64,000 nt of DNA from Camelus ferus (GCF_009834535.1 NC_045696.1:88104001-88168000); one strand, 5' to 3'; numbered from the stretch's first letter, positions 8,424 to 40,315 are shown. Translations and numbers: made by a program. Notes: generated by a model not told the origin, from the letters alone.

Positions 8424-8729
8424 TGCTCCCCTTTTTATACCAAGTTTCATAGAAATAAAGACTGTGAGAGTAAAACAAGAGGCCGCATCCCTCACACCCA
8501 CTCACCACTGTCTTGGGCTAGTCACCTGGAACTGTCACCCTCTGAAGAGGGAGACTCCAGCCACAAATCAAGACAAGCCGGGACTCAACCAGATGAGCCT
8601 CTGCTGGGGACCAACTGTTTGCAGCCTTTGAAATGGCTTCACATCTAATCTCCCATTTAAGCTGAGAAATAATTACTGAATAATTAAAAGTTTAAAAGTA
8701 GTCATTACAGCTAGCATTAATTAAAAGTA

Positions 8730-9020
8730 GCATTTATTCATTTATTCCACAAATGAGCACTGAGTTCTTATTAGGTGCTACGCTTTGTTCTAAGTGCTAG
8801 GGATCTGGCAGTCAGCCGGACAGGTGAGAGCCCTGTCCTAGAGGAGTTTCACGTAACAGTGGGAGGGGTCCAATGATAAAAAATAAATCAATAGAAAATA
8901 TGCCAAGTGCAAAGAAGTGCTATGAATAATAAAGCAGCTTGAGTAAACAGAAAGTTGGAATAGAATTGCTCTATTTTATATGAGATAATCAAGGGAGGCC
9001 TTTCTGACAAGAAGGCATTT
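8730..9020 (-). mobile_element. L2 3' end (probably resumes ~9540-9770)
   Basis: catttattcatttattccacaaat...actgagttcttattaggtgct...gttctaagtgctagggat L2 tail signature. Confidence 0.7.
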
Positions 9021-9036
9021 GAATAGCAACTTACTC

Positions 9037-9291
9037 TTGAGATGTGCAAAGGTTATCCACTATATATTAAAATAGATAAAAAGCAAATTTCTTCTGTATA
9101 GCACAGGGAACTATATTCAATGTCTTGTAATTACCTTTAATGAAAAAGAATATGAGGGCAAATGCATGTGTATAGATGCATGACTGGGACATTGTGCTGT
9201 ACACCAGAAATTGACACACTGTAACTAACTATAATTGAATTGTTTTAAGTAAAAAAAAAAAAAAAAAAAAAAAACTTTAAATAAATAAAAA
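9037..9291 (+). mobile_element. 5'-truncated camelid-type L1 3' end with poly(A)
   Basis: ctgtatagcacagggaactatattcaa 3'UTR motif; A-tail; 17-bp TSD tgaatagcaact(t/c)actc at 9020-9036 and 9292-9308. Confidence 0.9.
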
Positions 9292-9309
9292 TGAATAGCA
9301 ACTCACTCA

Positions 9310-9530
9310 ATTCGGATCAATCCTAGCCCAGACATACTTGCTTCCATCTTAAAACTACCAGATGACTAACTCCAGCCCTGAAAGCCATACAAGTACCCTT
9401 CCCCACATCCCCCTTTTGAGAAGCCCCTAAGGTTTTGTCAGGGTGAGGCTCTCCCGTGCTTAGTAAGTTTAATAAACCCACTCTGCATAATCAGCAAGTT
9501 TCCCTGGGGGTCTCTGTACGGGAGCTCTGG
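9310..9530 (+). mobile_element. ERV-type LTR fragment
   Basis: LTR R/U5-like layout: cccccttttgaga...taagtttaataaaccc (poly(A) signal)...gggggtctc. Confidence 0.4.
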
Positions 9531-10349
9531 CAAGGAAGAGTTTTTAGCATAAAGATGGTATGTAATACAACAGGACTGGATGAGAGCACCTGAAAATCAG
9601 GGCAGATAAAGATAGTACAAGGTCCAAGGAGGGAGTCTGGGGAAGTTCACCATTTCAAGTCCATCCCAAAGATAAGCAGGAACCAGCAAAGGAGATCGAA
9701 AAGCATTGTCAGGGAGGTCGAATGAGAAACGATAGAGGGTGTGCCCCAGAAGCTTAAAAGTGTTTTTAATCATGACTCTTAAAATGGAATCGGCTATAAA
9801 AATTTAACAAGAATTGATTTGAATACCAATAGACTGGCTGAATTGAGAGTAGAAGATTGTTTCCAGAAGTCAATAGGAGACATAAAATAAGTAAAAGTTC
9901 AGTCAGATACCTTTGACCCGTGGTCCTTGACACATAGAAATGGTCTGAGGGAATTTATCCAAATAGTTAATTCTAAACAAAGGGATAAAACACAGAAATA
10001 TCTCCTGAATCAAAAAGGGCTTGAGGCTATGGTTCTCAACCCTCTCTTCCTCCTCTTGTGATTAACTATTTTCTCAGCTTCTACACATTCCTCTTCTTCA
10101 ACCTTATTCATCTTTCTCTTTAATCAATCTTCCTTCTCCTCAGCATGATCTATTTCCATTCCCTTTATGAAGCTGTCAGTGATAGAGTCAAATTTAAAAC
10201 AGGCAGGCACAAAGCAAAGAGACAAACATAAAACCAAAGGAAGCTCTTAAAAGACGAAAGCCTCAAACCAAAAGGACCTCTTCATGCATAGAGAGGACTT
10301 GTTCAGCACGAATCTTTTAGTCATATGTGGGTAAGAGAGAGGAAAATCA

Positions 10350-10510
10350 TACAATGTTAGAATTGGAAGAGATCACCTAGTTCAAAGACACCCATGACAT
10401 TTTAGAAATGAAGAAAGTAAATCACAGATAGATTAACCAAGTTGCCTAAGTCATCGAGCTCACTGGAGATTGATGTGGAATAAGCCTGCCTCCCAGTCTA
10501 CTGCTTTTCT
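10350..10510 (-). mobile_element. MIR-family SINE fragment
   Basis: aatgttagaattggaagagatc...cattttagaaatgaagaaa...gttgcctaagtca. Confidence 0.55.
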
Positions 10511-11819
10511 CTCTCAACTGGTAAGATCAGAAGTATTCATTTCAAATTAAATGAGCAATAGCACACCTTCTCCAGTCCTTGGAAGTGAAATTCATTTTCT
10601 CATATAAACCAAAAAGACATGCTGAAGTGTTTCAGTCTACTTCAATGTTTTCATCATCGTCCATGGCTCAGTTCTTTTCCATTCTAAGGACAGGAAGCAT
10701 CACTGACTCATGTCAGTAGTTTCAGCATGTGAAAAGGATGCTGAAGGAACATAGGTCATTGTTTGAAAATCCAAGCAAAAAAAAAAAAAAAATCAAGGAA
10801 TAGAACTACCAGATTAGTAGCTAGTTATTAGCAAGATGTTTCAGTGGGTTAGAGTCCTTCATCCACTTTTGGGTCATAGGCAAGACTTAGGTTTTTGATT
10901 TTTTCCCCCCAAGTCTAGAAAACTTTTTTTCAAGTATAACTCTAGGATAAAATTTTGTACAAATCAGAATGAATATGCCAAAATGTACATATTTAGATAG
11001 TCTTTTATAACAAGATTTCTTTTTCTAACCAGGTCCAAACTTGATAACATATCTGTAATATTTTTCAGTTCCTAAGTAACATTTCCTGGTTTGTCTTTGA
11101 GTTAATTTTTCCTAGATTCTTAAACCTTGAGAATCCTCGTATTTCCCTTATTTTAATTTTTATCACATTCCAGATCCCTTTCTATTTAATCTTTGTAAAG
11201 CCATAAAAGGGGGAATTTAGGCTTAACTTAAATATGAGATTAAGTAATATGATTATCTCTTTTATAATCTAGATTGTTCTTTAAAAGGATATAACTTTAA
11301 ATCCCATGATAATTACATAAGTATCTTTGGAATTAGCAGTCAAGACAATAAAACAAAGAGAAAGAAATTCTTTTAATTAAAAAAATTTTTTAAATATATT
11401 TTTTAAATTAAAAAAAAAAACAAACAAGATGGAGCCAAGAATAAAGTTAGTACACAAAGTGCATGTAGTAAAATTTATCTACTCACACATTTGGCTCTGA
11501 GCTTCCTATATTAGCCGAAGAGAAAGAATAGGTACAAGTTGTCACACACTTCACAGTGTCCAGACAAAGAAAACCACACAGCTGTATCTATGCATTCAGG
11601 TTTCTAGTACTGAGACCAGAAAAAAATACTGTTGTTTTTTTTCAGGTTATCCTGAAGAGAGGCTACATCATACATGCACAAAATCATCAGCACACTTACA
11701 ATAACTAAACCCAAAAGTTTCATAGGGTTGTTTGCTCTGTTGTCCCTTAAGTACAAAGTAACACAATATAGACAACCATGTAGAAGAGCGTGGGGGAGAC
11801 AGGCAAGACCCTTGCATTC

Positions 11820-19794: not shown

Positions 19795-20434
19795 TAAGTA
19801 AAAAAGGAAGACTGATAGAAGGAGTTGGGGCCAGGAGGCCCATCCTGGACTTCCACCCCCACTGAGCCCGGCAGCAACTAAACAAATGGGACAGGAAACT
19901 GACCTGGGACCTTCTCTCCGTGGCTGCTTGGTGGGGACCTTGGGGAACTGTTCTTTCAGGCAGTTTCCTGTGTAAATTTTGGAGTGACCAAACTCAAAGG
20001 AAACCCTAGAAGTTTAACATTCTATAAGATACTTTGATAAACTAACTTTAGACTGCTCATCATGTTTTAAAAACATAAAAAAGTTAAGAGAATACACTTG
20101 GGATGCTGCAATATCCTAAAAATAGTTTTAATAACTTTTTCCAGTTAAATTGGAAGGGTTGTTCAAGTACAATTAAAATGTATCACTTTATTTTTCTACC
20201 ACTCCGACATGCCTGGTCAGGAGAACCTCTCAGGCCCCCTGAGAGTGTACATCCTGCATCTCAGCATGTGCTCCCACAGCCTCTCCTGAGGAGGAAGTAA
20301 ACCTGGAATAGAGTAGCCAGCTTCCCTAGTATGTCCTGGGCTGAGGGGTTTCCGGGATGCTGGACTTCCAACGCTCAGACCAGGAGGGAAAGCCAAATGA
20401 GCTGGTGGTCCTATAGAGGTCTCCAAACTTCAGT

Positions 20435-20592
20435 ATGCCTCAGAATTACCCATAGGGCTTGTTAAAATTCAGATTTCTGAGCCCCACCTCCAGAATTTTT
20501 TAATCAGAAGATCTGTGGTATGGCCCCAAAACTTGCATTTCTAACAAATTCCCAGCTGCCTGTCCAAGGGTCGCACTTTGAGAAGCCACTGC
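20435..20592. mobile_element. MER5A-like hAT-Charlie MITE
   Basis: ctccaaacttcagtatgcctcagaattacc...ggcttgttaaaa...ttgcatttctaacaaattccca...cactttgagaagccactg. Confidence 0.85.
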
Positions 20593-20599
20593 CCTATTC

Positions 20600-20958
20600 C
20601 TGGACTCTCCCCAGCCATAAGTGGATTAGTGGAAGGGTCCACAGCTAATTCAAATGATCTTATTTGACTGTCTCTCACAAGAATTTGACATTGGAACTCA
20701 AGGTCTTACATCAATCACCTTGGTCATAAGGAGAGTCTACATTTGACACTAGGTATACAGAATAAAGGGGATGTGAAAGGATTGCTTTCACCGAACATAT
20801 TTCCAGTTCCTGACTCCAGCCCTTCCATGAAGCTCAGCTATACTTGTCACCCTCTCATTCCATGAGGTTTCTCACTGCCTACTGATAAATTACTGTTTTA
20901 TACTTCAGCTACTTTGAATATCTTTTGTTATATCAGCCAACATAACCCTGATTAAGAC
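20600..20958 (+). mobile_element. Old MaLR LTR fragment (MLT1H/J/K-like)
   Basis: ccagttcctgactccagccct...aaattactgtttta...ends ccctgattaagaca. Confidence 0.5.
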
Positions 20959-23429
20959 CAAAATGCTCCAAATAATTGTATGCAACAGAGGACACCATCG
21001 ATCCAAGTCCAGGAAAATACCGTATTGACTCTGAGCCATTTTAGTTTCCTCTGTAACTTTTTAAACTGCCAGAAAAGTTATTCTAATTATTCATATTATG
21101 ATGGAGCTTGAAAATTTGATGCATTTCTTGTATAAATGCCTAACCTAAATATGGAAAAGGCTGGAAGGAGAGAAGTAAAAGGAAAAACTATCAACTCCAG
21201 TTCATTTGGATGTCCTAAGAGGAAATTTTATCACAATACCAGGGCCCATGGAAATCTCATGAGACCCAAAACATTTTGAGTAAATGATGGATTAGACTAA
21301 GTGGATTTGCACTCCATAGAATTTTACAGGCCAGTTCCACAGAGAAAATTGAGAATGTTGTGTATCCTTGATCAGAAATGGAAGCATATTTTAAAGACTG
21401 TTGAAGAGGATGTTAAAAGCGCAGAGCCCATTACAGCCTGGGTAACTCCTCTCTAACAACACAACAGAATTACCATCCTGTTTTTAAAGATCCTTAAAGA
21501 GAATAATCAAAGTCCCTCCCAAAAAGGCTTTTCTCATAATTAACAGGATTCATTGCCTAGAAATATCTTGATGACTTTCCCAAATCTCTCGTGCTCCATC
21601 CACAGTGTGTTTCTTTTAACCTAGGGACTGATCAGGAGCACTGAGTGACAAAAGCATACTCCTGAAGGCCAATGTTAATTTGACTTTTTTTTTCATATTC
21701 CCTTTGACCCTGTGCAGTTGCAACCCTCTGGGACTACATTATTTATCATATTTGTTATAAACCTACCAGTTTCTGAAATTCTTGATTTATTAAGTAGCAC
21801 CCGGTGATCTATTCTCTTAAATACAGTATTTTCTGCTATGAGTCCCTAGTTACTCTTAGTCTCCTTTGCATATTCAGCATCTTTCTAAAATGCTTCTCCT
21901 TGATGCAACCACTGTGCTCCGCTCTGCTCTCTTAACTTAAACCTTTCTGCCTGATTCTAACCAGATTTTCAGGGGTGATACCACCTTCATTTCATCTGAG
22001 TGATGTTGAAGCCCCATTCTGTCATCTAACAGACTACCTACTGTCTCCTCATTCCCACTCCCTGAGTCATCAAAAAACTAATAAATGCTTTCTTTCCCAT
22101 CTTTCAGATAAACACATCACAATTTTCAAAAGTTCTGGGCTTATCATTTCTTCCTAAAATTTGATTTATGATCCACCCGTGACTCCGGATGTCAAGACTC
22201 AGAGATAATGGTCTACAAAGACAGTATTTGTTACCAGATGCACGTAGCATGTAGAGAAAGATTACGCTGCTTTGCTGTTTAAACTATACTGTCTGCTTTA
22301 GCCCCACACTTCTCTCTTTTAGCAGTATTTATCAGAGTAATCCTCATCCAGCTTCATTATGTCCTCGTTAGTATGTGTCTGTTATCTCCTCCCTGCCAAA
22401 TCAAGAGTAAAGATTCTTTCTGTTTTATGATCCCTGTGGGCAAATGTCATTCTTGGCTGAACACATCGAGTGCCCATAAGGTTCTAATAGTTGAAGTGCT
22501 TAAAGCACCTGCCATCCATCAAGGTTTATGATGTGGTTACCATAGCTACCAAAACCCCATGCATTCCAGATAACCTGGGATCTGCTTTGTTAAAAAAAAA
22601 AAAAAAAAAAAAAGTCTGCCAGGGAATTAGCCACATGAAGTCAGTTCCAATTAAACAATTAAAATCAATCAAAAATGATTCAAAACATAAGGAAAACACT
22701 TCAAAACATAACAATAAACTCAGTGTCACTAAGATGAGCTGAGACCAAATCAAGACCATACTGGCTTAAAACTGATGGACAAAAAATTAGACCATATCAT
22801 ATCTCCTTTATGCTGCATCATATCAGCAGATGGCAAGGGGTACAATTTTCAAGGCCTCCTTGGAGATCGCCTTTGGAAAAAAGTACTGGAATACATAACT
22901 TTTAATCAAAAGTTACTGTGGAGGCCTTTTTTCTTTCCCCAAAGAAGTTTGCTTTTAAATAACAGTACTAGAGTTGTGTTTTATACCAAATCGTTCATCC
23001 CAGAGCATCCACATAATGCCGTATAAATGTATTAATTCACACAACCTTCCTGTAAAGCACAGGGGTAGCAAACTCCCCAGATGTGCATACTGAATTTTTA
23101 AAAAGCAGTTTAAGTTGACTAGTCTATTCAGAAAGGAAGGTTAAAAAGGTAGGCCTTGCACTGTGTCTTAATAATCAGAGTCCACTAGGAATTTATTAGA
23201 CTGTGACAAAAGAAAAAGAAAGGAAAAAACTCAAGCTTTTGTACACTGCCTCCTTGGCTTTTTTTAAATGCTCTCTTTCATACTTTCCATAGCACGAGGA
23301 GACAGAGGGTAATTTAATATGACTGACTTCAGAATATTGTGGGCAGTTTGCAAATAGAAACTGAATATCATCCAACCCAAAAATAACTCCCCAGCAGGAA
23401 ACTGGAAAAAAATCTATGATTTCACTATG

Positions 23430-23700
23430 CTATTGTTTAAAAACAAATATTTGCTAAAATTTGGATTAAATTGTAAAGAACATCAAATATTCTGATACAT
23501 ATTTGAGCAATGTGTAGCAAGAATCTTCAAAATATTCACACTCTTTGTCCCAGTAATTCCACTTCTAGGAATTACTTCTATCTATTGGAAAGAATGCAAA
23601 ACTCAAATAAAGATTTATGATACAGTTTACAGAATTATATATAAACAGTAAAGTGAAAATACTCCGAATACCCAAATCAATGAAAAGATTAAATATTTTA
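23430..23700 (+). mobile_element. L1ME-type fragment
   Basis: ctctttgtcccagtaattccacttctaggaatt (ORF2 C-terminal PAIPLLGI-like region). Confidence 0.6.
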
Positions 23701-23709
23701 AGCCCACAG

Positions 23710-24780
23710 CCATTTGCTTATTCATTTCTCACATACTACGTATCTCCTATGTTCCAGGCACAAGAAATACAAAGACAAATAAGACATGCTCTTACACACA
23801 TGATCCCTACCTTACAGTGTGTTATAATCTAACATGGAGGGAAAGACATGTAAACACATTATGATTGTAAGTGCCCTAGAAAAGGAAAGAGTGTTCAACT
23901 TTACATTAAAAAGATGAAGATCAGGAAAAGTTTTATAGGGTTGATCTTTAAATCTTGAAATTCAAGTATGTGCTTGGCAAACAGACTGAAGATCACTAGC
24001 AATAGTGAAAAGGAGGAACAGAGCAGAGGCAGCCAGGAGTACTTGGACTGACAACGTTGCAGACTTGAGTTGAACCAGTGACTTCAGGGAGGGCCGGAGG
24101 AGCAGACATGGGTGACGTGATGCGGGTTCTCTTTCGGGACTTTATGACTTGAACAGAGGGGATGAGATGGGCAGGATGAAGGAGCAAAGATGATTCCCAG
24201 TATTCTGACTCTGGAACCAGGAGGGTAAGAGAGGGAGTCCAAGAGAAAATAAAGCAGAGAGAAAGGGAATAATAGTATTTAGACATGAAGAGTTGGAATT
24301 GTCTGAGGAGCATCTCAGTGATGAGTTCATACAAAGAAAGTTGGATCTGAAGTTTGTACACGAGAGTGATGGATGTAAGGGCTGTGGCAGTAATCACTGC
24401 AGAGGATGAGTGTGTGAAAATTGAAAAGAAGAGCAAGGACAGGGCCCTGGGGCATACCAGTATGCTAAGGGGTTGGCAGAGGAATAGGAAAAAAAAATGT
24501 GACTCAGATAAGATAGCAAAGGAACCAGTGAGTTGAACAAACTCACTGACAAATGGCCATCAGTGGTGCCATTTTCCAGAGCAAGTTGTATAGACCAAAG
24601 GCAGCAGGAGTACCAATAGAATGGTTTTAAAGGGGAATAAGAGGTTGACTCCCAAGAGAAGAAAGGGAAGTAAAATTAGAGCAGGACATAGGATTACAAA
24701 ATGATACGTCTAAGATGAGAGAGACTTGTGTATACTTTCAGAAGATAGAAATTGAAGTGGTGAGAGGAAAAGATTAAAAT
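23710..24780 (-). mobile_element. L2 LINE remnant
   Basis: ttattcatt...ctcctatgttccaggca tail, then aaagatgattcccag..., tttagacatgaagagttgga, agagtgatggatg. Confidence 0.75.
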
Positions 24781-25096
24781 AAGAGAAATGAGAGTAAATG
24801 CTGAAATGATGCAGACTTTTCTAAGCTTTTAATGAACACACTAAAAATAAAATTTAAATAATACTTCAACAAGTTTTTAATAAAACTATTAAGGTACTTG
24901 GCATAAGCAGAAAAGTGAAAGATATAAAACTGAATGTATATTATGTCAACTTTATCAAACAAAATGTTTTTAAAAATTGAAGGAAAATATAGGAAAGGTT
25001 AACGATGGTTGATTTTGAGGAGCGTTATTTCTATGCTACATTTTTCCATTTTTCTTAATTTTTCCAAAATTAACTAATTTTATAATAATTTCTCTA

Positions 25097-25443
25097 AAAT
25101 ACCACATGATATCACTTATCTGTGGAATCTATAAAAAAAGACAAATGAACTTATTTACAAAACAGAAACAGACTCACAGGCATTGAAAACAAACTTATGG
25201 TTACTGAGGGGGGAGGGTGGGAAGGGATAAACTGGGAGTTTAAGATCTGAAGATACTAATATATATACATAATAGATAAACTACAAGTTTATACTGTAGA
25301 GCACAGGGAGCCATATTCAATATCTTGTAGTAGCCTATGGTGAAAAAAATATGAGAATGAATGTTGTATGTTCTTATGTAACTGAAGTTATTGTGCTGTA
25401 CACCAGAAATTGACACACTGTAAACTGACTACAATTTTTAAAA
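25097..25443 (+). mobile_element. 5'-truncated camelid-type L1 3' end
   Basis: Aligns by eye with 30425-30790 (aaatacca...tatcacttat.tgtggaatcta...acagactcacag...ctgtacaccagaaattgacaca). Confidence 0.9.
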
Positions 25444-25451
25444 AGTCTTAA

Positions 25452-25530
25452 AAGAGAAGAAAGTTGAAAAGAAGAGAAAGGAAAGAGGAAAGAAAGAAAG
25501 AAACAGGACAGAGGAAGAGAAAGAAGGTAG
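25452..25530. repeat. Purine-rich (GA/GAAA) low-complexity tract
   Basis: Direct inspection. Confidence 0.7.
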
Positions 25531-25958
25531 GGATGGTGGAAGGCAAGATCTGCCCGCCAGAGTGTGGGAATCACCAATCAAAGCATGTGCACACAGAACC
25601 CAGAACAGGACCTCAATTACAGGAGATTACAGCACTCCAGGCCTCAACTGTTTTCTAGTATTTTACATATGAAAAGTTCTATTTATGTTTGCTCTCTATA
25701 AGCAAAAAAAGTGTTTGTGTTTTTTTAAATAACTAAACAAAAGACATTGCATCTTCACAACTTGTGACACTTGCTACCTCATAAATATTTGTCTTTTCTC
25801 TGGGGTGATGTTACAGTGTGAATGAAAACTCTTCCCTGTGGGAAAGAGAAATCAGAACTTATATTATTAGAAAAGAAAAATGTGGACAGGCTAATGTTTG
25901 CAGACTGGGGATGCCATTAACCATAAACTTTATCTGAAATAAATGTGTGGGGACTTTT

Positions 25959-25967
25959 CAAGATGGC
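25959..25967 (+). promoter_or_regulatory. YY1 motif of the L1 internal promoter
   Basis: CAAGATGGC about 10 nt from the element 5' end, the canonical L1 position. Confidence 0.7.
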
Positions 25968-26849
25968 AGAGTAGAAGGACCCTCTTAGCTCACCCTCTCC
26001 CACAAATACACCAAGAGTGACATCCACGGACCCACCCACCAATCAGAACACCTGCTGAACTTTGACAGAATATTGCCTTCTTCAAAAGATAAAATTTTCC
26101 ACAAATCTGGTAGGAGAAAAGGAGAAAAGAAGAAAAAGGAAAATAGTGCGGGAGTGGTACCATGGGAAGGGAGTGGCAAAGGAGGAATGACACATATACA
26201 CTGGGTCTCCCCCTCTCCAACAAAGAGGTAAGCAGGACGGAAGGGGAACCTCTGAGGCTCAGATCCATACAGAATAGCCCTTGACTGACAGAACTAAGTT
26301 AAAGGGGCACAAAGGGTCCCTGCGACCCCCAGCCTGAGACGTGAACCAGCAGGGGTGGGACAGGACAGGCTGCCTGAGCTGGGCAGAGGACTCGGGTTGA
26401 CTGTACAGAGGCAACCTTGGGGGACTGCAGTACGCTGTGCATACTAGGAGGGTACACAGATCAGAACAGCGTGTGTCCCCGATGAAATACAAAAAAAAAG
26501 CAAAGCAACACTGCCGGTATGCACTGGGGGGAGGGGCGCAGTGACCTTTGTCTCCATAGACCTAAGGCACTGTTATTGGTGCATTTGGGAGGAGAGAGAT
26601 TGGGCTCAGCCACAGCCACCATATTCTCTGGTGTGAGGCTCCCAGGCAGAGGTGGGGTCGAAACCTGAATCCTTACCTAGGGGCTCAGCAACTTCACAGG
26701 CGGGACGGAGATTTGTTTACAGCCCCCGGCAGAGGGAACCATTCTGCCCTGGTGTCTGTGAACTTGTGCCTCTAAGATAAGCAGGAGTGGAGCTCTGGCA
26801 CAGAGCAGGGGGGAGGGCTGATGCGGCTGTTTTCCACAGGCCTGCCTAA

Positions 26850-27260
26850 CAGAGCGCGGACCGTCGCAGGGCCGGAGCGGCATTGAATGGGTGAGCAAGA
26901 CACCCACCTACCTTGCACAAGCCCCGCGGGTAGATGCTGCATTGGGAGAGGCCGCCACCCGCCTGCCTACTGTGTACCATGGCGGCGCCAGAACTTCCGC
27001 ATCAGGGCGGGGGTGTGGTGAGGGGAGCAGCACCCGCCCACCTACTCACCACAAGCGCGGCGCCGGAATGTGACGTCAGGAGGGGCCAGACTAGCCAGCC
27101 TACCAGCACTGGGAGCAACACAGACCAGGGCGCGACGGGAGGGCCTCTGAAACCAGTGAGCGGGATTTCGTGCAGCGGGACAAGGGCAGAAGCAGCGACA
27201 ACCACAGAACAAAAAGGAGGCCCCACTTAATAGCCAGGGCAGGCTCTGGCTGCCACGCAC
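26850..27260. promoter_or_regulatory. CpG-dense segment of outer L1 5'UTR with a full CRE (TGACGTCA, 27071-27078)
   Basis: Many intact CpGs (gagcgcggaccgtcgc, ggcggcgcc, aagcgcggcgccgg, ggcgcgacgg). Confidence 0.55.
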
Positions 27261-29057
27261 TGGTCACACCCTCAACCAAAGGGATAACAGACAAAAGGCA
27301 CAGAAGGAAGACTTGGCAACCACCCATACTTAAAAGGACCTCTTAACAAAATTATTAAGAATGCAGTCTCCACAGGAACACATCCACTTTTTTTTTAATT
27401 TTTAATTTTTAAAAATTTTATAATTTTTTAATCCCTTTTAAAATTTTTTTTAAATTTTTATTAATTTTTAAAATTTGTTTCAATTTGATTTTTATTTCTC
27501 ATTTTGTTCTGTTATTAATTATAGTTTTTAAATCTTTTTTCTTCTTTAAAAAATTTTTTTAGTTTTATTTCCACATCCACTTTCAATAAATAAATAAATA
27601 CGTAAACCCACTCAGAACCACAGTAGATAACTGATACTCCATAATCCATAGTGCCAGAGAGATATAAGTAAAATGAAGTAGAGGAACCACTCCCAATTAA
27701 AAGAACAAGAGGAAAGGAAGCAAGATGGTGGAGTAGAAGGACGCTTGTAGCTCACCCTCTCCCACAAATACACCAAAACTTGTATCTATGGACCTACTCA
27801 GCCAACCAGAGCACCTGCTGAACTTCAACAGAACATCGCCGTCTTCGAAAGACAAATACCCCAAAAACCTGGTAGGAGAAAAGGAAAAAAGAAAGAAGAA
27901 AAAGCAAAACAGTGTGGGACCAAACCCGCGGGGAGGGAGCAGCAAAGGAGAACTGGCGCTCGTTCACTGGGTACCCCCTCTCCAACAGAGAGGCCAGCAG
28001 GACGGAGGGGGAGCTCCGAGGCTCAGATCTGCCCAGAGCACTCCTTGACCAACAGAACTGAGTTAAACAGGCACAAAATGTCCCCGCAACACGCAGCCCG
28101 AGACACGAGCTGGCAGCTGGGGCAGGGACAGGCAGCCTGAGCCAGGCGGAGGACTGGGGCGGCTGCACTGAGACAGCCTCAGGGGACTGCAGGGGGCTGT
28201 ACACCATGGCTGGGAGGGAATATGGAGCAGAACAACCTCAGTCCCCCATAAATTGCAAAAAAAGCAAAGCAGCATGGCTAGTGTGCCCTGGGGCGAGTGG
28301 TGCCATAGCCTTTGTCCCCTCAGACCTGCACCACCATTACTGGTACTTCTCGTGAGAACAGAGGCGGGGTGCAGCCACAGCTGCCATCTCCTCCTGTGTG
28401 CAGCACCTGGGCGGGGGAGGGGCTGAGACCTGAATCCGCACCCGGGGGCTCCGCAACCTCCTAGGCAGGACTGAGACTTGTTTACAACCCAAGGCAGATA
28501 GGATCTTTCTGCCCTGGTCCCTCAGAGAACTTGCTCTGCCAAGACAAACAAGGAGCTGAGAACTGGCATGGAACAGGGGTGGGGCCATTCCATAGTCTTC
28601 TGTGAGCCCGCCTTTGGAGCGCCAACCAGAGGCGGAGTGGGCAGCTGCACAGAGCAGCAGAGCAACTGGAGCCCAGAAAGGGTGAGCAGCCCCCCCCCCC
28701 CCGCCTTCCTGGCAGGAACGCAGCACCTGACCACAGTGCTGGGAGCGGGTGCGATCCGCCCACCTGCCTCGCCCAAGCGCAACATCTGACTGTGGCATCA
28801 GGAGGGGGAGTGACCTGCCCACCCACCAGGTAAGAGCTCGGCACCTGACCCAGTGTTGGGAGGGGGCACAGTCTGCTAGCCAACAGCCACTGGGAGCAGC
28901 ACAGACAAGGGCGCCAACAGAGGGCCTCTGGAAACAGCAAGCTGAGTACGCAAAATGGGGCGAAGACACAAAGACCTCTTGATAAAATCATTAAGAGCAC
29001 ACCATCTCCAGGAGAACTAGATAACTGATACTCCTTAAGCCACAGTGCCAGAGAGAT

Positions 29058-29953
29058 ATGAGCAGTGTGGAGAAGCAGAGGAACCACTCCCAATTAGAAG
29101 ATCAAGAGAAATCCCCTAAGAGCACGATCAAGGAAATAGACATGGATGGACTACTAGATCAAGATTTCAAAAAAGGAGTGATCAAAGTACTGAAGGAACT
29201 AAAAGAAATAGTGTTTAGAGATATAAAATATGTCAAAAATGAAATAGAAACTATAAAGAAGAACCAAGTAGAATTAGTAAACTCGTTTGCTGAGATGAGA
29301 GCTGACCTGAAGGCTGTACAAAACAGTCTGGAAAATGCAGAAGAGCAAATGGGTGACTTGGAGGATGGGACAGCGGAGAGCACCCAATCAGAACAGCTGA
29401 GAGAAAAACAAATAAGAAACAATGAGGGCAAAATAGGGGACCTATGGGATAGTATAGAGCGTGCTGGTCTACGCATGGTGGGGGTTCCAGAGGGGGAGGA
29501 GAGAGCAGAGGGGATTGGGAGAATATTTGGGGAAATCATGACTGAAAACTTCCCAAACCTAAGGAAGTCAGATGTCCAGGTGCAGGAGGCTCAGAGCATC
29601 CCAAACAGGAGGTGCCCAGGCAGACCCACACCAAGACATATCATAATCAAGATGGCCAGATTCAAGGATAAAGAGATGGTCCTGAAGGCAGCAGGAGAAA
29701 GACAATGAGTTACAAGGGAACCCCCATGGGGCTCTCAGCTGATTTCTCTGCACAGACACTGCAGGCCAGAGGAGAGTGGCAAGATGTATTCAAGGTCCTG
29801 AATGAAGAGGGGATGCAGCCTGGGATACTCTATCCGGCAAGGCTATCCTTTGGAATGGAGGGAGGGATAGGGAACTTCACAGACAAGCAAAAACTAAAAG
29901 AGTTTAGCAACACTAAACCCATGCTAAAAGAAATACTGACAGGTCTACTCTAA
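29058..29953 (+). pseudogene. ORF1: L1 ORF1p (RNA-binding/chaperone), frameshifted at ~29705
   Basis: ORFs 29058-29708 and 29705-29953 join into ORF1p: coiled coil, GVPEGEE, ENFPNL, RPTPRHIIIK, LSADFS, LYPARLSF, KLKEF...LKEIL.GLL. Confidence 0.93.
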
Positions 29954-30096
29954 ATAGAAAAGAAGCAGGATGCTACAAAAATGAGAAACTCATAACTGGA
30001 AAGGAGATAACTGCCATGAATTACAAAAAGAATAAACACAAAATTGTAAAAGAAGACATCTAAATCATTAAGAGTGGGAGAGGAAAGCAAGGAAAG

Positions 30097-30459
30097 CCAC
30101 TGTGGAAAACAGTATGGAGATTCCTCAAAAGACTAGGAATAGACTTACCATATGACCCAGGAATCCCACTCCTGGGCATATATCCAGAAGGAACCCTACT
30201 TCAAAATGACACCTGCACCCCAATGTTCATAGCAGCACTGTTTACAATAGCCAAGACATGGAAACAGCCTAAATGTCCATCAACAGATGACTGAACAAAG
30301 AAGATGTGGTATATTTACATGATGGGATACTATTCAGCCACAAAAATCATAACACCATTTGCAGCAACATGGATGTTCCTGGAGAATGTCATTCTAAGTG
30401 AAGTAAGCCAGAAAGAGAAAGAAAAATACCATGTGATATCACTTATATGTGGAATCTAA
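30097..30459 (+). pseudogene. ORF2: L1 ORF2p C-terminal remnant
   Basis: Translates PLWKTVWRFLKRLGIDLPYDPGIPLLGIYP...MFIAALFTIAKTWKQPKCP..., internal TGA at 30292, ends SLICGI-stop. Confidence 0.9.
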
Positions 30460-32351
30460 AAAAAAGACAAATGAACTTATTTACAAAACAGAAACAGACT
30501 CACAGACATAGAAAACAAACTTATGGTTACCAGGGGGGAAGAGGGTGGGAATGGATAAACTGGGAGTTTGAGATTTGCAGATATATATAAAAATATATAT
30601 ATCTGACTAATATATATAAAATAGATAAGCAAGTTTATACTGTATAGCACAGGGAACTATATCAATATCTTGTAGTAGCTTACGGTGAAAATGAATATGA
30701 AAATGAATGTATGTATATTCATGTATGACTGAAGCATTGTGCTGTACATCAGAAATTGACACATTATAAACTGACTATACCTCAATTTAAAAAATGTGAT
30801 ATTGATGAATAAAACAGATGAAAGAAAGCACTTTTGAATTTATGTATTTGTTCTACCCAGAAACTTTTTTTAACCTGCCAATACATTCATGCAGTTGACA
30901 TTTTACAAACCTAGAAAATTAGAAGTCAATGATCCAGCCATGTCATTTCATATTGATTAGTGTGTTCTACACCAGAGATTTCCATCCTTTTTTCCCCCCA
31001 GATCCTTTGACAGAAGCATGGCTACACTGAAGTCACTCCCCAGAAGGCTACACTGTAGAGCCTATAAATAGAGAAAGCATTCCCAGCAAAATGCAGCCAA
31101 AACAAGGCTTCTTTGTATGCGGTCGAGCCAACTGCAGCTCTGTTGCACTACTGGGTTATAAAAATATATTTCATTTTTATTATTTAGCACTGCAGTGCAA
31201 TAGGAGCTTGGGACTACACTCAGCATCATTTAATTTTACTTGAGAACACTTCAGATTGGAATTGGAAAATCACATTCAACTTAATATTTCACCATTTGCT
31301 TGTACTATTTTCATTTTTCCTTTAGGAGAGGAAAAAAACTAAAGTTATATATTCAAATAATTGTAGCAATATCTTTAAAAGTGAGATTAAAAAAAACAAA
31401 GCTGTTTATTGTTCTGCTCAATGTTTTAGGTCGAAGTAGCTTTCTTGATATATAGGGGCATGTTTTTTTTCTATTAAGTATGGGACTTAGATATATTTTT
31501 CTAATCAGCCCTGCCAAGTACTAGATCCTAAACGGGAAAAGTATTAAGGAAATATACAAATGTTTACTATATGACTGATACAGGTAGAGAAAAGCTGAGG
31601 CTGAAGTGAATTATTTAGAATGTATTTAGTTTAAAACACAAGGCCAGCCTAGAGAACAATTTGTTTACAACCAGAATACCACTTAAACTTATCTTACTAT
31701 TTAAAGAAATCCTCCAAAAAGATGTTCTGACTGACTGCATTTTAATAAATGTTACAGTACAAATTTATTAGGAATTTTAAGTCCATGGTGGAGGTGTTCC
31801 AGCTTCTTTAAATTGACATTAAAGGAGACAAGAAAATCCTCCTCTTGGGACCCGGATAGGATTTCAACTCATGGTTGAAAGGTCTAAAACTAAACGAATA
31901 ATAAACTCTCTTGTTGAATCCAGGACCCTATATAATACAGCTTAATATAAAAAGTGGTTTCTCTGTGCAATCAATAAGAAACATTAATCCTTTCCACTTG
32001 AGTGCCAGAAGTTTGCCAAGTCCAAGAAGTGAAAAGAAATTTACTCTAAATAATTAAATTCATTTTTATTCTTCAAGAGATAATATACTAGGTTCATAAT
32101 ATAGAAAAGAATTCTAAATTTGATCACTTGGAACATGCACTGGAGGGAGAGAAGAAAAAGCTAGTTTAAATAACTAAACAGCCCAATAATTGTTTTTTTC
32201 TTCCTCATATAAACCTCATATTGTATTCAACTGATCTTTTCTTTGAGAGAATGGCTAAAAAAAGAAGAAAAGAGATCTTTGTAACATGAATTTTCTTAAC
32301 AAATCAGAATCAGTCTTACAGTCTCCTTTTTCAAGGAAATGTTTTTATTTA

Positions 32352-32570
32352 CAGTTGACCCTTGAACAACATGGCTTTGAACTGCACGGGTCCATTTATA
32401 TGCAGATTTCTTTTCAGTAAATACAGTACTACATGAACTGAAGTTTGTTGACTCGGCTGATGCAGATCCCACAGATACAGAGAACCAACTATGGGACTTG
32501 AGCATCCACGGATTTTGGTATCCAAGGCAGGTCCTGGAACAAAACCTCTGCAGATACTGAGGGACAGCTG
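32352..32570. mobile_element. TcMar-Tigger MITE (Tigger2/MER2-like)
   Basis: TA on both sides; imperfect TIRs cagttgaccct / agggacagctg. Confidence 0.85.
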
Positions 32571-33654
32571 TATGTATCTCTAATGATAGAACATCTAGCA
32601 CATTCCAGATAATGAGAGAATACCTTCCCTCTCTGACTCCTGATAATACCTTCTGAAATTAGCTGAATTTAGCCATGACATCATGTCGATTGCCACCATA
32701 ACATAGCACTTTTTTGAATGATTTCCCTTTCACCTCAACTTTTCAACCTTAGCCATCATTAAGACTCAAACTAAGTATGTTTTCCCTCCATGAAGTTTTC
32801 CAAAATAACTCAAAGTAATACTCATTCTCACTCTCCTGACCTCCTCCATCGATTTCCCTTTGGACCATACACATTAGGAAATATACCATATTATCTTATA
32901 TTCTTTTCTAATTGAAACACACGAAAACTTTGTCTCCTTGTAAGATGATGACATTTTTTAAAGCCAAATCCCTCTTATTTATGTCTTTTATAGGTGTATG
33001 ATGTTTTGCTGCTTCCTTCTGTAAACTGAAGCAATAAAAAAACAAATGATTACAATTTAAGTTAAACTTGCTTTATCTTTGTTTTAAAGGAAACACACAT
33101 TCACTGTAAGAGATTCAGGAGTCTGTCATCTAAAGACCGTGAGGGAACTACACTTAAAGTTAAGTGGTTGATCTTTCCAAACTTTTTAATATTTTTTTCA
33201 TATGATAATATTATACTTGATTTCTTGTAATTTTTTTTCACTCAGTAATAGATGATGGACAAGAACACAGATGCATGTTATAGAACTCCTTTGGATACAT
33301 AAGTTATTGTAGTTCCCTCCTGGTGGATATGCAGGTCTCTTCTTACTTAAAAAAGTTTCTGTGAAAAATTTTATGCATATAACCACTTATTTCCTAAGGA
33401 TAAACTTCCAAAAGTAAGCACCTTAAGTGTATAGATATCTCAGTCCAGTACTTGGTAGACCTCACAACACTGTAAGACCTCAGTAAGTCTTAGCTGGGGT
33501 TATAGTGCTGATATTGTTGGATACAAACAATGGTATATTTTATTAATTGTTTTAAAGGACCACCTATAAAATTGAACCAATTCATTAACACCGTTGGTGT
33601 ACAAAAAATGTCCATATGCTCATAACTCTGTTCATTTTTAATGCTTGATATTTT

Positions 33655-34068
33655 TGGTAAATATTGCTACTGCTCACCAATATTTCCAATTCTCCCCTCC
33701 TTCCAGGTACAGGGGAGGATTACACTTCTCCACCTTCTTGAAGGTAGCTGTAGCCAGATGCCTTGTTTTGACCAATAAAATTGAGTAGGAATGACTTCTG
33801 TCAGTTCTAGATAGAAGCATTCAAGAGCAGGTGCAGAACTCTGCCTGATTTCTCTCCCCTGGCCCCATTATCTAAGGAAGTCAGATCTTCAAGACAGTGC
33901 TTCTATAACATAGCAGATTGGCTGAGTTGCGGCCTAAAGTACAGATACCTCAAAGACCCTCCCAGACCTGCAGAGAACTGCATCCCAAGTAAAAAGTCAT
34001 TTGTGAAGCCTCTAAAATTCAGGGGTTGTCTGTGATCTCAGTAAATCTAGCCTAGCCTAACTGATAGA
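33655..34068 (+). mobile_element. MaLR LTR (MLT1I/J-like)
   Basis: ttgttttgaccaataaaattgagtagga...ttgtgaagcctctaaaattcaggggttgtctg...ctagcctagcctaactgata. Confidence 0.7.
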
Positions 34069-34504
34069 ACTGTCTAGAAGATTCCTACCACATGATTCCT
34101 TTAGTTACTAATAATCTTACACATCCCATCATTTCATTTTTAAATGGGGTTGGGAGGGAACTGCCTATAAATGTTTTTTAGGAAAGCATTTGATTTTTAA
34201 CCATTCACTTTTAGCAACTGCTATTAATCCATCCCTTGCCTCATCCCAGACGCTCAGAAATTCTGTGACACTTGAGCACAGTTAAAGCCTCAGGAGTCTC
34301 TGAGATGTCTATGATCTTGTTCAAAAATCAAAGCACAGCTGCTGCATTATTATCTTGAAATACCTACTAAAATGGCACCTAAGTATGTAAGCATCAGAAT
34401 GTCCTGCTCGTCTCTTGAATATTCTCCACAGCACCTAGCACATTGTTATCTAGTAATAATTCAAAATAATAAAACTCAATAATAATTCTAAAAGGGTTTT
34501 CATA

Positions 34505-34640
34505 AGATGAAAACTATCAGAGACCTTAGAGTGTTTAAGTTCAATGACCTTGTTTTACAAATGAGGACAGCGAGACACCAGTGGAGGAAATAGCACAGCT
34601 TCCAAAGGAATTGGAGCCATCACGGATCTCCCACACTGCA
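34505..34640 (-). mobile_element. MIR-family fragment
   Basis: agagaccttagag...ttgttttacaaatgaggacagcgagacac. Confidence 0.5.
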
Positions 34641-35699
34641 GTGAAGAAAGTGCTCCAAACCCCATCCCTAGAGGTAGTGCGAGCAAATTACATAGTGAGC
34701 TTAAAATGCTGTATTTCATTGTTAGACTATCCTTGAATACTCAAATACAACTCTATGGTTTACTGATTTTGGAAGGGAAAGGGAGAATAAAGAACTCAAA
34801 CTTACTTTTGTTCTCTAGCCAGCTAGCCTTCTATGAGTTTTCAGAATTACTGGGCAGACTACCCCTCACCATCTTATTTCAGAAGAGACTGTTCATCACA
34901 AACAGCAAGAGTTAAGCCAATGACAATTATTTTCCACCACAGTGATTGGTGTTACCACACCTACCAATAAAACCCATCAGCTTCAGGGCATTTTATGAGG
35001 CCAGTTCTCATCTAGGTGTGACAGACTGAATCTTTGAACATCATCATTAAAATCAATGGGAGCTCTAACAGAGTCAGGAGTGTGGAATGGGTTGCACTGG
35101 CTCTGAAACTGCTGATGTTCATTTAAGTCCACTGTTCATTTTGCAAGCAGAAAGATTTATCCCATCTGACAGAGCAATCCAAAGAATCTCTCCAGCCCAG
35201 ACTATTCAGTCCTGATCAGAAAATTACAAAAAAGCCAATAATTGCATGTTAAATTATATTTTCTTGCACTTGTCTGCTCGCTCCTTATGTTACAGTCACT
35301 AGTCTTCACCTGGTTAGGAATAGGGATTCATTACCAAGAACTCACCCCAATATGCCCTGAAGTCAGGACCCCTACAGAAAGAGAACATACCTCCTGGTTA
35401 TCGAGAGAACGGACACTCATGTGGGTTAGATTGTTCCTGAGCTGCTCCAGTGGTTAACCAAGATACTACAGCCAGTCAGAAACTTGAAAGTCACTAGCGG
35501 TCTGTTCCTAGATATGCAGGGATCTCCTTGCAGGGCTAGATTAACCAAAAGGAGCATGTCCTTGGGGACCAGAGGGTCAGAGAGAGCAGGACATCTAGGA
35601 AGAATTTAAGTTTTGTACCATTTCAAAAAATATTTAAAGTTTAGGATTTTTTTAATTGCATTTAGTATGGGGAAATAGCATCCTGTGTTCAGAGCTTGA

Positions 35700-35978
35700 G
35701 TCCTCTCAAGCACTGTTTCTCTAGTGACCAGTGATGGAAGAACAGTTTTGTTGTGTTTTTTCCCCTAATCCATCACGGACTGATGAAGCTTTGAATTTCA
35801 ATAAAAATTAATTACTGTAAAAAATCATTAAAAATTGAGATATATAAAATATAAGCCCAAACTTTTTTCATTGTTAGATTCAAGCTACACAAAATTGCTC
35901 AAACTGCTATAAAGATTTCCAAACACTCACCTCATGGCACACCAGAGTGGCTCTACAGACCCCACTTGGAGTAGGGCA
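35700..35978. mobile_element. hAT-Charlie-derived fragment (MER119-like)
   Basis: aaaatataagcccaaac...attgttagattcaa...gaccccacttggagtag end. Confidence 0.5.
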
Positions 35979-38900
35979 ACTCTAAATGCTTAATTGGGGT
36001 CTGGCCCAGAATTACTACAGCAGTGAGTTGGTTTGGGGTTTGTTTGTTTGGTTGGTTGGTTGATTTTAGTATTTTTTTTTTAAGCATGATTTTACTACCA
36101 GTAGGACTGAAATCCCAAATCACTAATTTTAGCTCTATTTTTCCCAGAATGCACTCAGCAAAGTCGATTTGTTGAACATGCTTGGTGCTTCATATATCCG
36201 GTATTTCTCTCCTTCATTCAGCATTTACTGAACACAACTCTGTGCCACTTGCTGTAAATGTAGCAGTCAATGGCATGGCCGCTGTTCTCATAGGGTGTTA
36301 CCTCTAGACCAGTCAATGGAGGACTGCTAGCTGCTGTTTATGTCTTTCTTTTTGCTAGGAAATTTAAAACCCCAGGTTAAACCTGCACACGTTGAAATTA
36401 GGTCATCGTTAGCTGGTGCTGCATTAACACGGTGTCTGGGTGTCTGTTTCCTTGAAACCGTACTGCAGCTTATTCAGATGCCCCCGGCTCCCTTTCTTCT
36501 AACTTTCCTACTGCATGTCAATGGTTAATTACTCCTCCTCTTCGTGGTATCCACCCAAAGAACTTCTGGACACAATGAAATCATGAATATTAGTGATTCA
36601 GGCTGACTTTTAGGGGAGGGGCCAGATTATCTGCCAACTCCATCAGCCCTGGTCCATTCTATTAGAATTACTTCTACGAAGCTTACTCAAATAACCTTTT
36701 ATGTAATTGGAGTTTCTTAATCTCTTTTTCTATAAGGGGCTAAGATTTCACAAGAATCTTAATTAAATTTGTTATATTCTTCTAAAAATAAAAAGAAAAG
36801 CCCAGTATTTCTTCCAGAATTAAGTGTAATTTGAGGTATTATACAGACCATGTGCTTACAAACCTCATCTCTTTATAAGTTTTACCATAAATCCATCAAG
36901 TTTAACAAATAACGTTTTTCTTAAAGAAAAATAATAACATCTTTCTAGATCAGAGTTACATCTCCAAAACTCTAGGAATTGAAGCCTAAAAAGATAGGGT
37001 TACCAAAAACACTTCTAAACACACTATCATTTTAAAGTTTGTTTTTGCTACAGAACCAAATAAAACACTGATAATAATTTGTTATTTTTTAAGTCCAATA
37101 CACTGTCCAAAGTCTGAAGTGTAAGCACTTGCACCTGGCTTTTTATAACTAATTAACTCAAGAACAAAATACGATAGAAAAAGTTAAACTCCAGTCTCTC
37201 ATAACCACATCGTTGCTCCAAATAATTTCATTTCTGCCATAAATTTACTATCAACATAGATCATTGCTGTATTTTCTTTCTCTTTTAAACTTTTTAATTA
37301 AGGCCAGTTATAAACTCCCTGTCTTCTTTTACCTCATGGATAAATCCAACCATAATCATCCCAGTATCGACTGAAAATGCATTATTCCCAGAAATGCTAA
37401 TGACCTTATTAATGTCCCATTCATGCTTTCCATTACTTCACTTAATTTAAAGCAAGCCCACAAATATTTTTCTCCATTGAAGTTGCATAAACATAGCACA
37501 TATTTCATCAAGTTTAATCACAGGTAAGTCTAATGAGATGCATGGAACTTTTAAGAAATGAAATGTAATATCCAAACCATATTTGCTACTCTCTACAGGT
37601 CCAGAAGGTCAGCCAACCTTTTTAAGTGAATCATAAGCAGAAGAAGAGTAAGTTAAAGCTTCACAGGCAAGATGATTTGGAATTTCAGAGTGTCCACTAC
37701 AAAAGGCCTAGGGAAAACATGTCCAGCTTGTACAGGGAAAACAGACTTCTGTTTTCATTTATTTTTTGTTCACACGGACATCTGTTATTGTATCTCCCAC
37801 ACACATCAAAAACCAAAAACATCCTTTGTATTCCACACTGCCACAAAAATACACCCCCTCCCAATTTTTCATTTTAAATTAAAATTCTCTATGTAGATGA
37901 AGTCACAAGGCTCTCTCTCTTATATTCTTTCTGGCATTGTATTTCCAGTTTTAATTTTCCTGCCATCTGTGGGTTACTACCATTCTGAATACTTCCTATA
38001 CTGCTTCTCCAGATCTGATTAATCTACATCCTCTTTTTATTGATTGGTTTTCATTCATTACACTTCCCCCAGAATCTTCTGTTGAGAAAACGTGACTTAG
38101 CTCAGGTCAAAATTAAATTTCAAGATTTAGTACCACTTCTGAATCAAAACTGTATCTAAGAACTATGGATGAAATTTATTGGACACCAAATGGATGGAGC
38201 AAAAAAACTAAATTGTTTTCCACTAGAAATCTGTTTCTATGATAAAATAATATCACAAGTAATAGTTATGGTTGCTTTAATGTGACAGATATTTTTTGAG
38301 ATGGCTTTATTGTACAGGGGGGACACTTTTCTGTGTTTGATAAGACGGAGCTATTTTGTTTCTGTTATCACCTGTGTTGTAGTAGCTTCTCCCTGTGTCT
38401 CTGTGTGTCTGCCCGCAGACATCCTTTTTATCCTACACCTTGTCATAAATTTTAGGAAGACAGAAACACATAAAAGCATTTCTTACGGAAACACTAGATT
38501 TGCTCTCATACTTATCCTAGAGGAGATAACTTCAAACAGTTTTTACTCATGTAGCATCATGCGATGCTTAGTCACTCCCATTAAACCATCATCGTCTCTC
38601 CAGGGGGGAGGTCTCGTTGTGCCGTGGCTCTGGAGACTCACAGAAGTTCTCAGCCACTCATTCCTCTCCCCTCCCATGGGAAAAAATACACCAAATTTGT
38701 TTTTCTTTCATACATTTACAGTTGTCAGAGATGACCCCATGGCATTGAAACAACACCTCCTTCTTCCACTGGTACTCAGTGTGGCCATAGGCACACTGCC
38801 AGCTTTGAAAAATAAATTTGACATTCCTTCAGAATCCAAAATACACTTTGAAGACTGTTACATTTTGTATGGTTTGTTTATGAACTCAAGGAAACAACAC

Positions 38901-39645
38901 ATACAAACGCATTTCTTTATCCATTAGAAAGAAAGAAATAGCCCTATTGGAACATTTAGTATAGTAAAGCCGAAGTATCAGGGTTACCAGCAATTAAAGT
39001 TCTTTTACTCACTGGATTGCTATCTGTTGAGAAAGTAGGCCTTATTATGATTTTCATACTTAGGAGATACTCCCTTCATAGTTTCAGGGGAAAAAAAGTT
39101 TGACGTCATATTTTCTCCGGTTCTTAATTTTAGATGTAAAAATGCAAATTCTTCAGGGAAATAAAAAGTACTATTCTGGAATACTGCAGAGTCTGCCAAC
39201 CAGCCTCACCACTAAGTCTCTGGCCTTGTTTTTGGGGTCTCTGTCTTGGCCCTTGTCCACAGGGCACCTTCCACAGCTACCCAGTGCACAGCACATCAGT
39301 GCACCATCTGAACAAGTCATCTGGACACACAAAAGGTGTCTCATTCCTTAAAGCAGGAATTATACAGAAATATATTCAGGAGCCTAGAATTACGAATCTC
39401 GAATTACTTTCTAAGCTTCACCAGTGCAATCACAGACTGAGAAAATACCAATTTCCCCTCAGGCAAAATTCTAACCCTCTTCTCGAGGAAATCCTATTCA
39501 TTTTTACATCAATCCTTAAACTGTCAGCCCCTAAAACTTACCACAGTCATGTTCAAATATGTGATCCACCAGGTGTTCAGATGTGAAAATTAGCCATGAT
39601 GCAATAAATAAGAAGCAAATAAAACTATAAATAAATATAGAAAAC

Positions 39646-39770
39646 TACAATGGAAAAGAATCTGAAAAATACGTATGTATGTATACGAATAGCTGAATTG
39701 CTTTGCTGTGCACCTGAAACTAACATTGTAAATCGACTACACTTCAATAAAACAGTAAGAATTAAAAAGA
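39646..39770 (+). mobile_element. Camelid-type L1 3' end
   Basis: aatggaaaagaatctgaaaaa...ctttgctgtgcacctgaaactaacattgtaaatcgactacacttcaataaaa; gaaaact repeated on both flanks. Confidence 0.85.
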
Positions 39771-40315
39771 AATGGAAAACTAAGTCAAATAATTATTTAA
39801 TTAGCCGTGCACTTTTGGGGGTCATTGGTGTTCACCATTATTTCATGAACATCTGGAATATGGTTATAATGTACATGAAAGCATTTTATAAATTGTAAAA
39901 ACTTCATTCAGAGCTTCATAAATGTCTGGTACGTACTTGAACTAATAAATTTGTGGTATATACAGGAAGGGAGAAATACAATGAGTAGATTCTTTTTATC
40001 TTTTTCATGTAACGATTGGAAACCATAATAAAGAATCCACTAGTCATTACAGCTTCACTTTCAAGCTAGTCTCCATTTTGTTTAGACACAAAGATACGAG
40101 TATCAGAAGTGTCATTTTGGCAATCCGACTTCGGGAAATATGAATAAATTCAGGCCAGCCTGAAAAGCCAGTCCAAGATTTCAGTTACAGGATAGAGCCA
40201 ATATAAATTTTTACCTGCCAAGTTTAAGATTAATTTGGGGGCTCATTTCAGAAAAAAAAATGTCAAAGGTATTGATTGAGTGGGGAAAAAAGGCCACTAA
40301 AATTCAACTGTCGTG

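Follow-up and report, generated by a model that had tools for sequence, protein, structure and literature searches.

The L1 sequences of the locus lie within a 64,000-nt window of the Camelus ferus genome (the window being the whole stretch of DNA analysed) and include: (i) the 5' part of an older L1, (ii) a young L1-derived segment with a GC-rich 5'UTR, an ORF1, a spacer and a remnant of ORF2, and (iii) an L1 3'UTR that passes from the young to the older type before the element ends. The coordinates of these features, and of the two stretches of ORF1 in which A>G changes are concentrated, are collected in Table 1.

Table 1. Features of the focal L1 copy and of the older L1 around it (numbering starts at the window's first base)
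Feature	Position	Strand	Details
Older L1 5'UTR and about the first 55 nt of its ORF1	25957..27716	+	74-84% identical to the young element
L1-derived element, 3.1 kb	27717-30795	+	GC-rich 5'UTR, ORF1, spacer, ORF2 remnant, L1 3'UTR
Young-L1 5'UTR	27717..29057	+	Opens at the canonical 5' end of the family (GAAGCAAGATGG); of 300 ancestral A, only 5 are A>G
L1 ORF1, broken	29058..29953	+	From translation, ORF list, alignment and Pfam
Minor patch of A>G (putatively edited), ORF1 start	29065..29120	+	5 A>G: 29065, 29067, 29070, 29097, 29120
Main tract of A>G (putatively hyper-edited)	29285..29871	+	68 A>G among 250 ancestral A (27%); 3' edge sharp
ORF2 C-terminus remnant	30094..30285	+	Corresponds to human ORF2p residues 1150-1215 of ~1275, E = 4e-25
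Crossover from young-family to older-type 3' end	30378..30436	+	From diagnostic columns
Older-type L1 3' end	30437..30795	+	Ends ...CAATTTAAAAAATGT; no clean poly(A) tail after

The frame of the focal ORF1 is shifted by a 4-nt deletion near 29704-29706 and meets a stop at 29706-29708. Despite the broken frame, the RRM-like and C-terminal domains remain recognisable, with Pfam matches to Transposase_22 (E = 3.8e-15) and Tnp_22_dsRBD (E = 1.9e-20). A spacer of about 140 nt separates the ORF1 stop from the ORF2 remnant, which was identified by its match to solved ORF2p structures and in which a Pfam search found no domain. Over the 842 nt that run from the ORF1 stop to the 3' end of the element, this stretch of the ORF2p C-terminus is the sole ORF2 match. 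The endonuclease and reverse transcriptase of ORF2 are absent from the element, which is not an autonomous L1.

The near-complete loss of ORF2 is a trait of the family and is not peculiar to the focal copy. In searches of the camel's own 2.09-Gb assembly for paralogs, the junction of ORF1 with the ORF2 remnant (29930-30230) is present at full length and 97-99% identity at at least 39 other loci, drawn from 1843 first-look candidates. Starting at the 5' end, the paralogs of this ORF2-deleted family run collinear to the focal copy; several have clear target-site duplications and A-tails, and ORF1 is still open in 3 of 29. The family is abundant and young, and its units of ~3.1 kb consist of a 5'UTR, ORF1, a spacer of ~140 nt, ORF2 from about residue 1150, and a 3'UTR. 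Elements of the HAL1 ('half-L1') type keep ORF1, are without ORF2 and are mobilised in trans. The camel family looks like a trans-mobilised element of this type in being L1-derived, with ORF1 kept and ORF2 missing. By contrast with HAL1, the camel family retains an L1 5'UTR, the C-terminal remnant of ORF2 and an L1 3'UTR, and it is young, with 97-99% identity between copies.

The ORF1 of the focal copy carries an excess of sense-strand A>G changes that is real and far beyond chance. Private differences were scored where the focal base departs from a state shared by 80% or more of 29 paralogs, in columns where 15 or more were informative; the 29 paralogs are the best own-genome matches and are 86-88% identical to the focal copy. 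In ORF1 (29058-29957), 91 private differences are found in 891 informative columns: A>G makes up 73 of them, G>A 9, C>T 2 and transversions 7, and T>C is absent. The 5'UTR (27717-29057) has 39 differences in 1010 columns, including 5 A>G and 3 T>C, and the sequence downstream (29958-30605) has 28 in 593 columns, including 8 A>G and 3 T>C. When each of the 29 paralogs is scored in turn by leave-one-out, 0-8 A>G and 12-25 differences overall are obtained. The 18 differences of the focal ORF1 that are not A>G are ordinary beside these paralogs; thus, apart from its A>G load, the focal copy is of ordinary age.

A second set of paralogs gives the same picture. Of 65 copies, 57 passed a coverage filter, and 30 copies were picked by the unedited junction of ORF1 and ORF2, a selection that is therefore blind to ORF1. 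Against this set the focal copy has 73 A>G and 1 T>C, and the paralogs have 0-9 A>G. A>G peaks at 19 within 100 columns for the focal copy, and none of the 57 paralogs exceeds 4. The tract pattern is seen in 1 of the 58 copies examined. Within the main tract, A is changed to G 68 times, to T once and never to C, while none of 95 ancestral T is changed to C (Fisher p = 1.9e-11 for T>C against A>G). An earlier note on this DNA had read ORF1 as densely changed from A to G on the sense strand and had reasoned that equally frequent T>C would speak for GC-biased gene conversion instead; the tabulation confirms the density and finds the change to be one-directional.

The A>G changes are confined to bounded stretches of ORF1. 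The main tract covers 587 bp, and A>G there stands at 68 of 250 ancestral A compared to 18 of 704 over the rest of the element (p = 3.5e-27). The minor patch also departs from the background A>G rate (p ~3e-4 by a rough binomial). No A>G site occurs between the two, at 29121-29284, in the comparison with 29 paralogs, and none occurs at 29872-30239, despite roughly 190 ancestral A in that interval (by bins). The base that precedes a changed A has a strong effect: 43 of 101 A are changed after A, 16 of 37 after T, 5 of 52 after C and 4 of 60 after G (chi-square p = 3e-8). A or T precedes 59 of the 68 changed A, and the rate of change is 43% after A or T, 10% after C and 7% after G. The depletion of a preceding G is significant when taken separately (4/60 vs 64/190, p = 1.2e-5). 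Of the bases that follow, G accompanies 27 changes at 70 A, C 9 at 35, A 24 at 100 and T 8 at 45; the enrichment of a following G (27/70 vs 41/180, p = 0.017) is weaker than the effect of the preceding base. The patchiness, the clustering and the 5' T or A bias, all of which the earlier note had put forward from inspection, are thereby placed on counts. Clusters in hyper-edited RNA are described as depleted of G upstream and enriched in G downstream, which is the ADAR motif (PMC4365171), and the neighbour rule of the tract matches this published motif.

Strand-specific mutagenesis of the DNA after integration, whether by polymerase-eta-like WA errors, transcription-associated asymmetry or a DNA adenine deaminase, has two points of contact with these data. 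The first is context, as polymerase eta has a WA motif, with A or T before the A, and 59 of the 68 changed A share it; the second is that the focal copy is without the usual hallmarks of insertion. Spectra of the polymerase-eta type, however, are rich in A>T and A>C and involve the two strands alike, whereas the 68 A>G of the tract are accompanied by 1 A>T, 0 A>C and 0 T>C among 95 T. The preference for a following G and the depletion of a preceding G fit ADAR instead. The L1 sequence that flanks the tract is untouched on both sides, and no comparable tract occurs in the 57 other copies. Mutagenesis of this kind is considered very unlikely as the source of the tract. Infidelity of the reverse transcriptase, for example through an imbalance of dCTP and dTTP in which C is misincorporated opposite template A, would likewise produce A>G on the sense strand, and in the retrotransposed copy only. 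The changes are nevertheless held in two bounded stretches and are neither spread nor graded along the cDNA, and an excess of dCTP should favour sites at which G is the next base of the template, hence a preceding G in the RNA, which is here the least used neighbour (4/60). An unfaithful reverse transcriptase is therefore rated a shade less likely still.

The third alternative, an artefact of assembly or sequencing such as polishing with reads from edited RNA, is given a lower probability again. No error mode would be expected to give 73 one-strand A>G changes that follow an enzyme's neighbour rule within 800 bases and leave the flanks clean. Sequencing runs bear on the same point. Fourteen DNA-type runs (organism codes A in ten, B in two and C in two; nine studies) contain 0.66-0.71 of the sampled words of 29250-31300, shares that do not tell which of the words are present and that leave the artefact some room to this extent. 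The interval is still largely present in runs of three organism codes and nine studies, and 31-mers from the edited part, being unique, are likely among the words present. Six RNA-seq runs contain 0.14-0.35 of the sampled words of the same interval, part of which may be transcribed.

The polarity of the changes is from A to G, with G as the derived state. G is absent from all 29 paralogs at 52 of the 73 sites, present in one of them at 20 sites and in two at 1 site. Human ORF1p (2ykp) aligns with a paralog at 205.9 bits and with the focal copy in two pieces at 84 and 78.4 bits. At the edited codons, human ORF1p has the residue of the paralog 16 times, that of the focal copy 3 times and neither about 17 times (alignments read by eye). 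The older ORF1 start that lies within the window (27661-27715) has A at the equivalents of 29065, 29067, 29070 and 29097 (by eye), as the earlier note had observed in its use of this stretch as a control. The ancestral residues that the note had given (e.g., NIRDLWDNIK, AAREK, PIRLS, QARRE and QPRILYP) agree with the alignment of paralogs, and its concern that G might be the ancestral state in camelid L1s is answered by the paralogs and by human ORF1p alike.

The G alleles are also private to the locus. Among the best 40 candidates scored, the closest other genomic copy is 81-82% identical over 29340-29540 and 88% identical over 29720-29880, compared to the 97-99% found at at least 39 loci over the unedited stretch 29930-30230. 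The best 40 of the 912-10562 candidates per search include neither a sibling nor a source that shares the G alleles or the mosaic junction. In the absence of a close match over the edited stretches among the best 40 scored per search, the G alleles are taken to belong to the focal locus alone, a point that the earlier note had named for checking. A metagenome scan with a 45-nt edited stretch returned no match. Reversed polarity (a G>A-edited, APOBEC-like founder), conversion from a G-rich lineage and GC-biased conversion can draw on the fact that a pairwise comparison alone gives no direction and that a purine follows 51 of the 68 sites. These readings are scarcely credible, as human ORF1p sides with the paralog residues by 16 to 3, A stands at 4 of 4 comparable sites of the older ORF1 start, the A states give conserved ORF1p motifs with ORF1 kept open in 3 of 29 paralogs, the strong effect of the preceding base is unlike the APOBEC rule, the closest genomic copy over the edited core reaches 81-82% (best 40 scored), and T>C at 0 of 95 excludes GC-biased gene conversion.

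The A>G tract also contains seven G>A changes outside CpG (29323, 29342, 29522, 29523, 29565, 29598 and 29773), which slightly exceeds what paralogs show over the whole of ORF1. Four of these changes recur in 1-3 paralogs; thus, some may be lineage markers. At 7 G>A to 68 A>G, the tract is not a G>A cluster of the APOBEC3 type.

The young segment (27717 to ~30400, 2.7 kb) is most likely a copy of duplexed L1 RNA that was hyper-edited by ADAR and then reverse transcribed. This reading of an edited RNA template, which was that of the earlier note, is supported by the one-strand clustering of A>G, the 0 of 95 T>C, the ADAR neighbour rule and the private G alleles. In the proposed mechanism, ORF1 nucleotides ~228-814 and a short stretch at the ORF1 start would have been held in a long duplex; the likeliest partner is an L1 antisense transcript supplied in trans. 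ADAR would then have deaminated about a quarter of the sense-strand adenosines to inosine, the L1 reverse transcriptase would have read inosine as guanosine, and the resulting cDNA, lodged within a resident L1 of older age, would have become fixed in the germline.

No partner for the duplex was found nearby. No inverted repeat of at least 40 nt is found in 20000-40000 and no antisense copy of ORF1 in the 64,000-nt window, and self-complementarity in the focal copy and three paralogs reaches at most 12-28 nt. Since the element family and the locus are without a partner, an antisense L1 transcript in trans is the candidate; with a partner in trans or at the source locus, none would be expected locally. 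Young LINE-1 elements are reported to form sense/antisense duplexes with A-to-I editing in embryonic stem cells (PMC13674447), which supplies the type of duplex needed. In mouse L1, an antisense promoter in ORF1 gives transcripts that start within ORF1 and lowers retrotransposition by a route described as largely Dicer-independent (PMC3985663). A start inside ORF1 would give the duplex one sharp edge, as at 29871, and a hypothetical antisense start near this position would explain why the tract is sharp at its 3' edge and ragged on the 5' side. A reading of the 5' edge as an antisense splice donor was set aside as speculative. Neither of these two reports shows edited L1 RNA completing retrotransposition.

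Several points count against the ADAR reading. A cell-culture study reports that reporter L1 RNA was unedited over more than 2.5 kb and that restriction by ADAR1 was independent of editing (PMC5224506). The tract is seen in only 1 of 58 copies, it also has seven non-CpG G>A changes, slightly above the typical number, and the preferred context overlaps the WA motif. The searches found no duplex partner, and the copy has neither a poly(A) tail nor a target-site duplication of its own. The earlier note had further proposed that editing damaged ORF1p motifs needed for retrotransposition. The altered motif residues are present as described, but because the focal element is without ORF2 and was never autonomous, damaged ORF1p motifs reveal little on whether it could mobilise itself.

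The focal copy is of mosaic make-up and sits within an older L1. The older L1 upstream is in the same orientation, directly adjoins the first base of the young L1 and has a best non-self genome match of 83%. The first base of the young segment is that of 22 paralogs with aligned 5' ends, and is thus the canonical 5' end of the family. At the other side, the young state is found at all 14 diagnostic columns of 30189-30377, with three columns at 30346 that fit neither type, and the older state at nearly all diagnostic columns of 30437-30795; the best non-self genomic match over 30300-30795 is 85% (best 40 candidates scored). Of the hallmarks of a retrotransposed L1, the ORF1p domains and the canonical 5' end are present, and a poly(A) of its own and a target-site duplication are lacking. 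A search of both flank pairs for a target-site duplication gave local alignments with a score of 18, equalled in 58 of 300 and 33 of 300 shuffles. The 5' flank reads AATT|AAAAG (by eye), which fits the L1 endonuclease site and is not evidence on its own.

In the simplest reading, a young L1 copy derived from RNA would have entered the resident old L1. Two routes may be envisaged: an ordinary target-primed insertion followed by deletion between the similar young and old 3' regions, or homology-primed reverse transcription where the old L1 had been broken. The young segment ends at the exact 5' terminus of the L1 RNA, which points to cDNA and not to a DNA donor. DNA-to-DNA conversion would be an unlikely fit, as it would call for homology at either junction and leave behind a donor bearing the G alleles; no such donor is found among the best 40 genomic candidates scored per search. 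As the copy has an older 3' end and no poly(A) or target-site duplication of its own, the view that an edited RNA was integrated is based on its canonical 5' end together with the editing signature. The surroundings hold further L1 sequence. A T-rich low-complexity block of ~190 nt (27370-27560, GC ~0.12-0.2) interrupts the 5'UTR of the older L1. Another L1 3' end (25096-25530), 84% identical to 30423-30777 and followed by an A/G-rich tail, stops ~430 nt upstream of the 5' end of the old L1.

The nearest known counterparts are retroviral. A-to-G hypermutation in BLV proviruses is ascribed to ADAR1, with HTLV-2 and STLV-3 cited likewise (PMC8025556). These proviruses are similar to the focal L1 in that sense-strand A>G clusters reach DNA through reverse transcription. 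They are exogenous and somatic, with at least 7 changes in an LTR stretch of ~70 bp (PMC8025556), whereas the focal L1 is a non-LTR element of the inherited genome with 68 changes in 587 bp of coding region. The hyper-edited RNA of Porath, Carmi and Levanon (2014) shares dense A>G, the same motif and an origin in repeats capable of forming dsRNA (PMC4365171); those clusters are differences between RNA and DNA, and in the focal L1 the DNA itself is changed and no duplex partner is local. The G-to-A fossils of APOBEC3 are likewise a deaminase footprint in a retroelement copy that became integrated in spite of its hypermutation, and are recognised, as here, from polarised, strand-biased clusters (PMC4866542). 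By contrast with the focal tract, they run in the opposite direction (G>A), arise on cDNA and not on RNA, and are made by another enzyme family.

The locus is likely a heritable record of an L1 RNA that was paired over ~600 nt, lost about a quarter of its adenosines there to deamination and was still reverse transcribed into the germline. A full-text literature search turned up no description of an ADAR footprint in a germline copy of L1; two papers outside its scope, Carmi 2011 and Knisbacher and Levanon 2015 (Ann N Y Acad Sci), may bear on novelty. A 2016 review, in a passage on Alu, calls the role of ADAR editing in retrotransposon evolution undetermined (PMC4982230). Whether ADAR restrains L1 by editing is unsettled between the unedited reporter RNA of one study (PMC5224506) and the edited duplexes of another (PMC13674447). 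A germline copy with 73 ADAR-type changes would indicate that such RNA exists where heritable insertions are made, and the focal copy suggests that an inosine-rich template can be copied and kept. If the reading is true, ADAR editing would be a mutagenic brake on non-LTR retrotransposons, an RNA-side counterpart of APOBEC3; fossils of this kind would map the segments of L1 that form dsRNA in germ cells or early embryos, and the abrupt limit at 29871 would be the 5' end of an L1 antisense transcript with its start inside ORF1. As one locus explained by known enzymes and known logic, it would be a clean natural example and not a new principle. The enzymology is that of textbooks; for this class of substrate and in this setting a natural example is informative.

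The same approach may be applied to any mammal, by searching young L1 copies for polarised, strand-aware clusters of A>G with T>C as the control. Among the camel copies tabulated here, two pairs have identical counts of private changes in ORF1: L013 and L014 (C2, ~48 kb apart) and L045 and L046 (C29, ~22 kb apart). Both pairs are probably copies within local segmental duplications.
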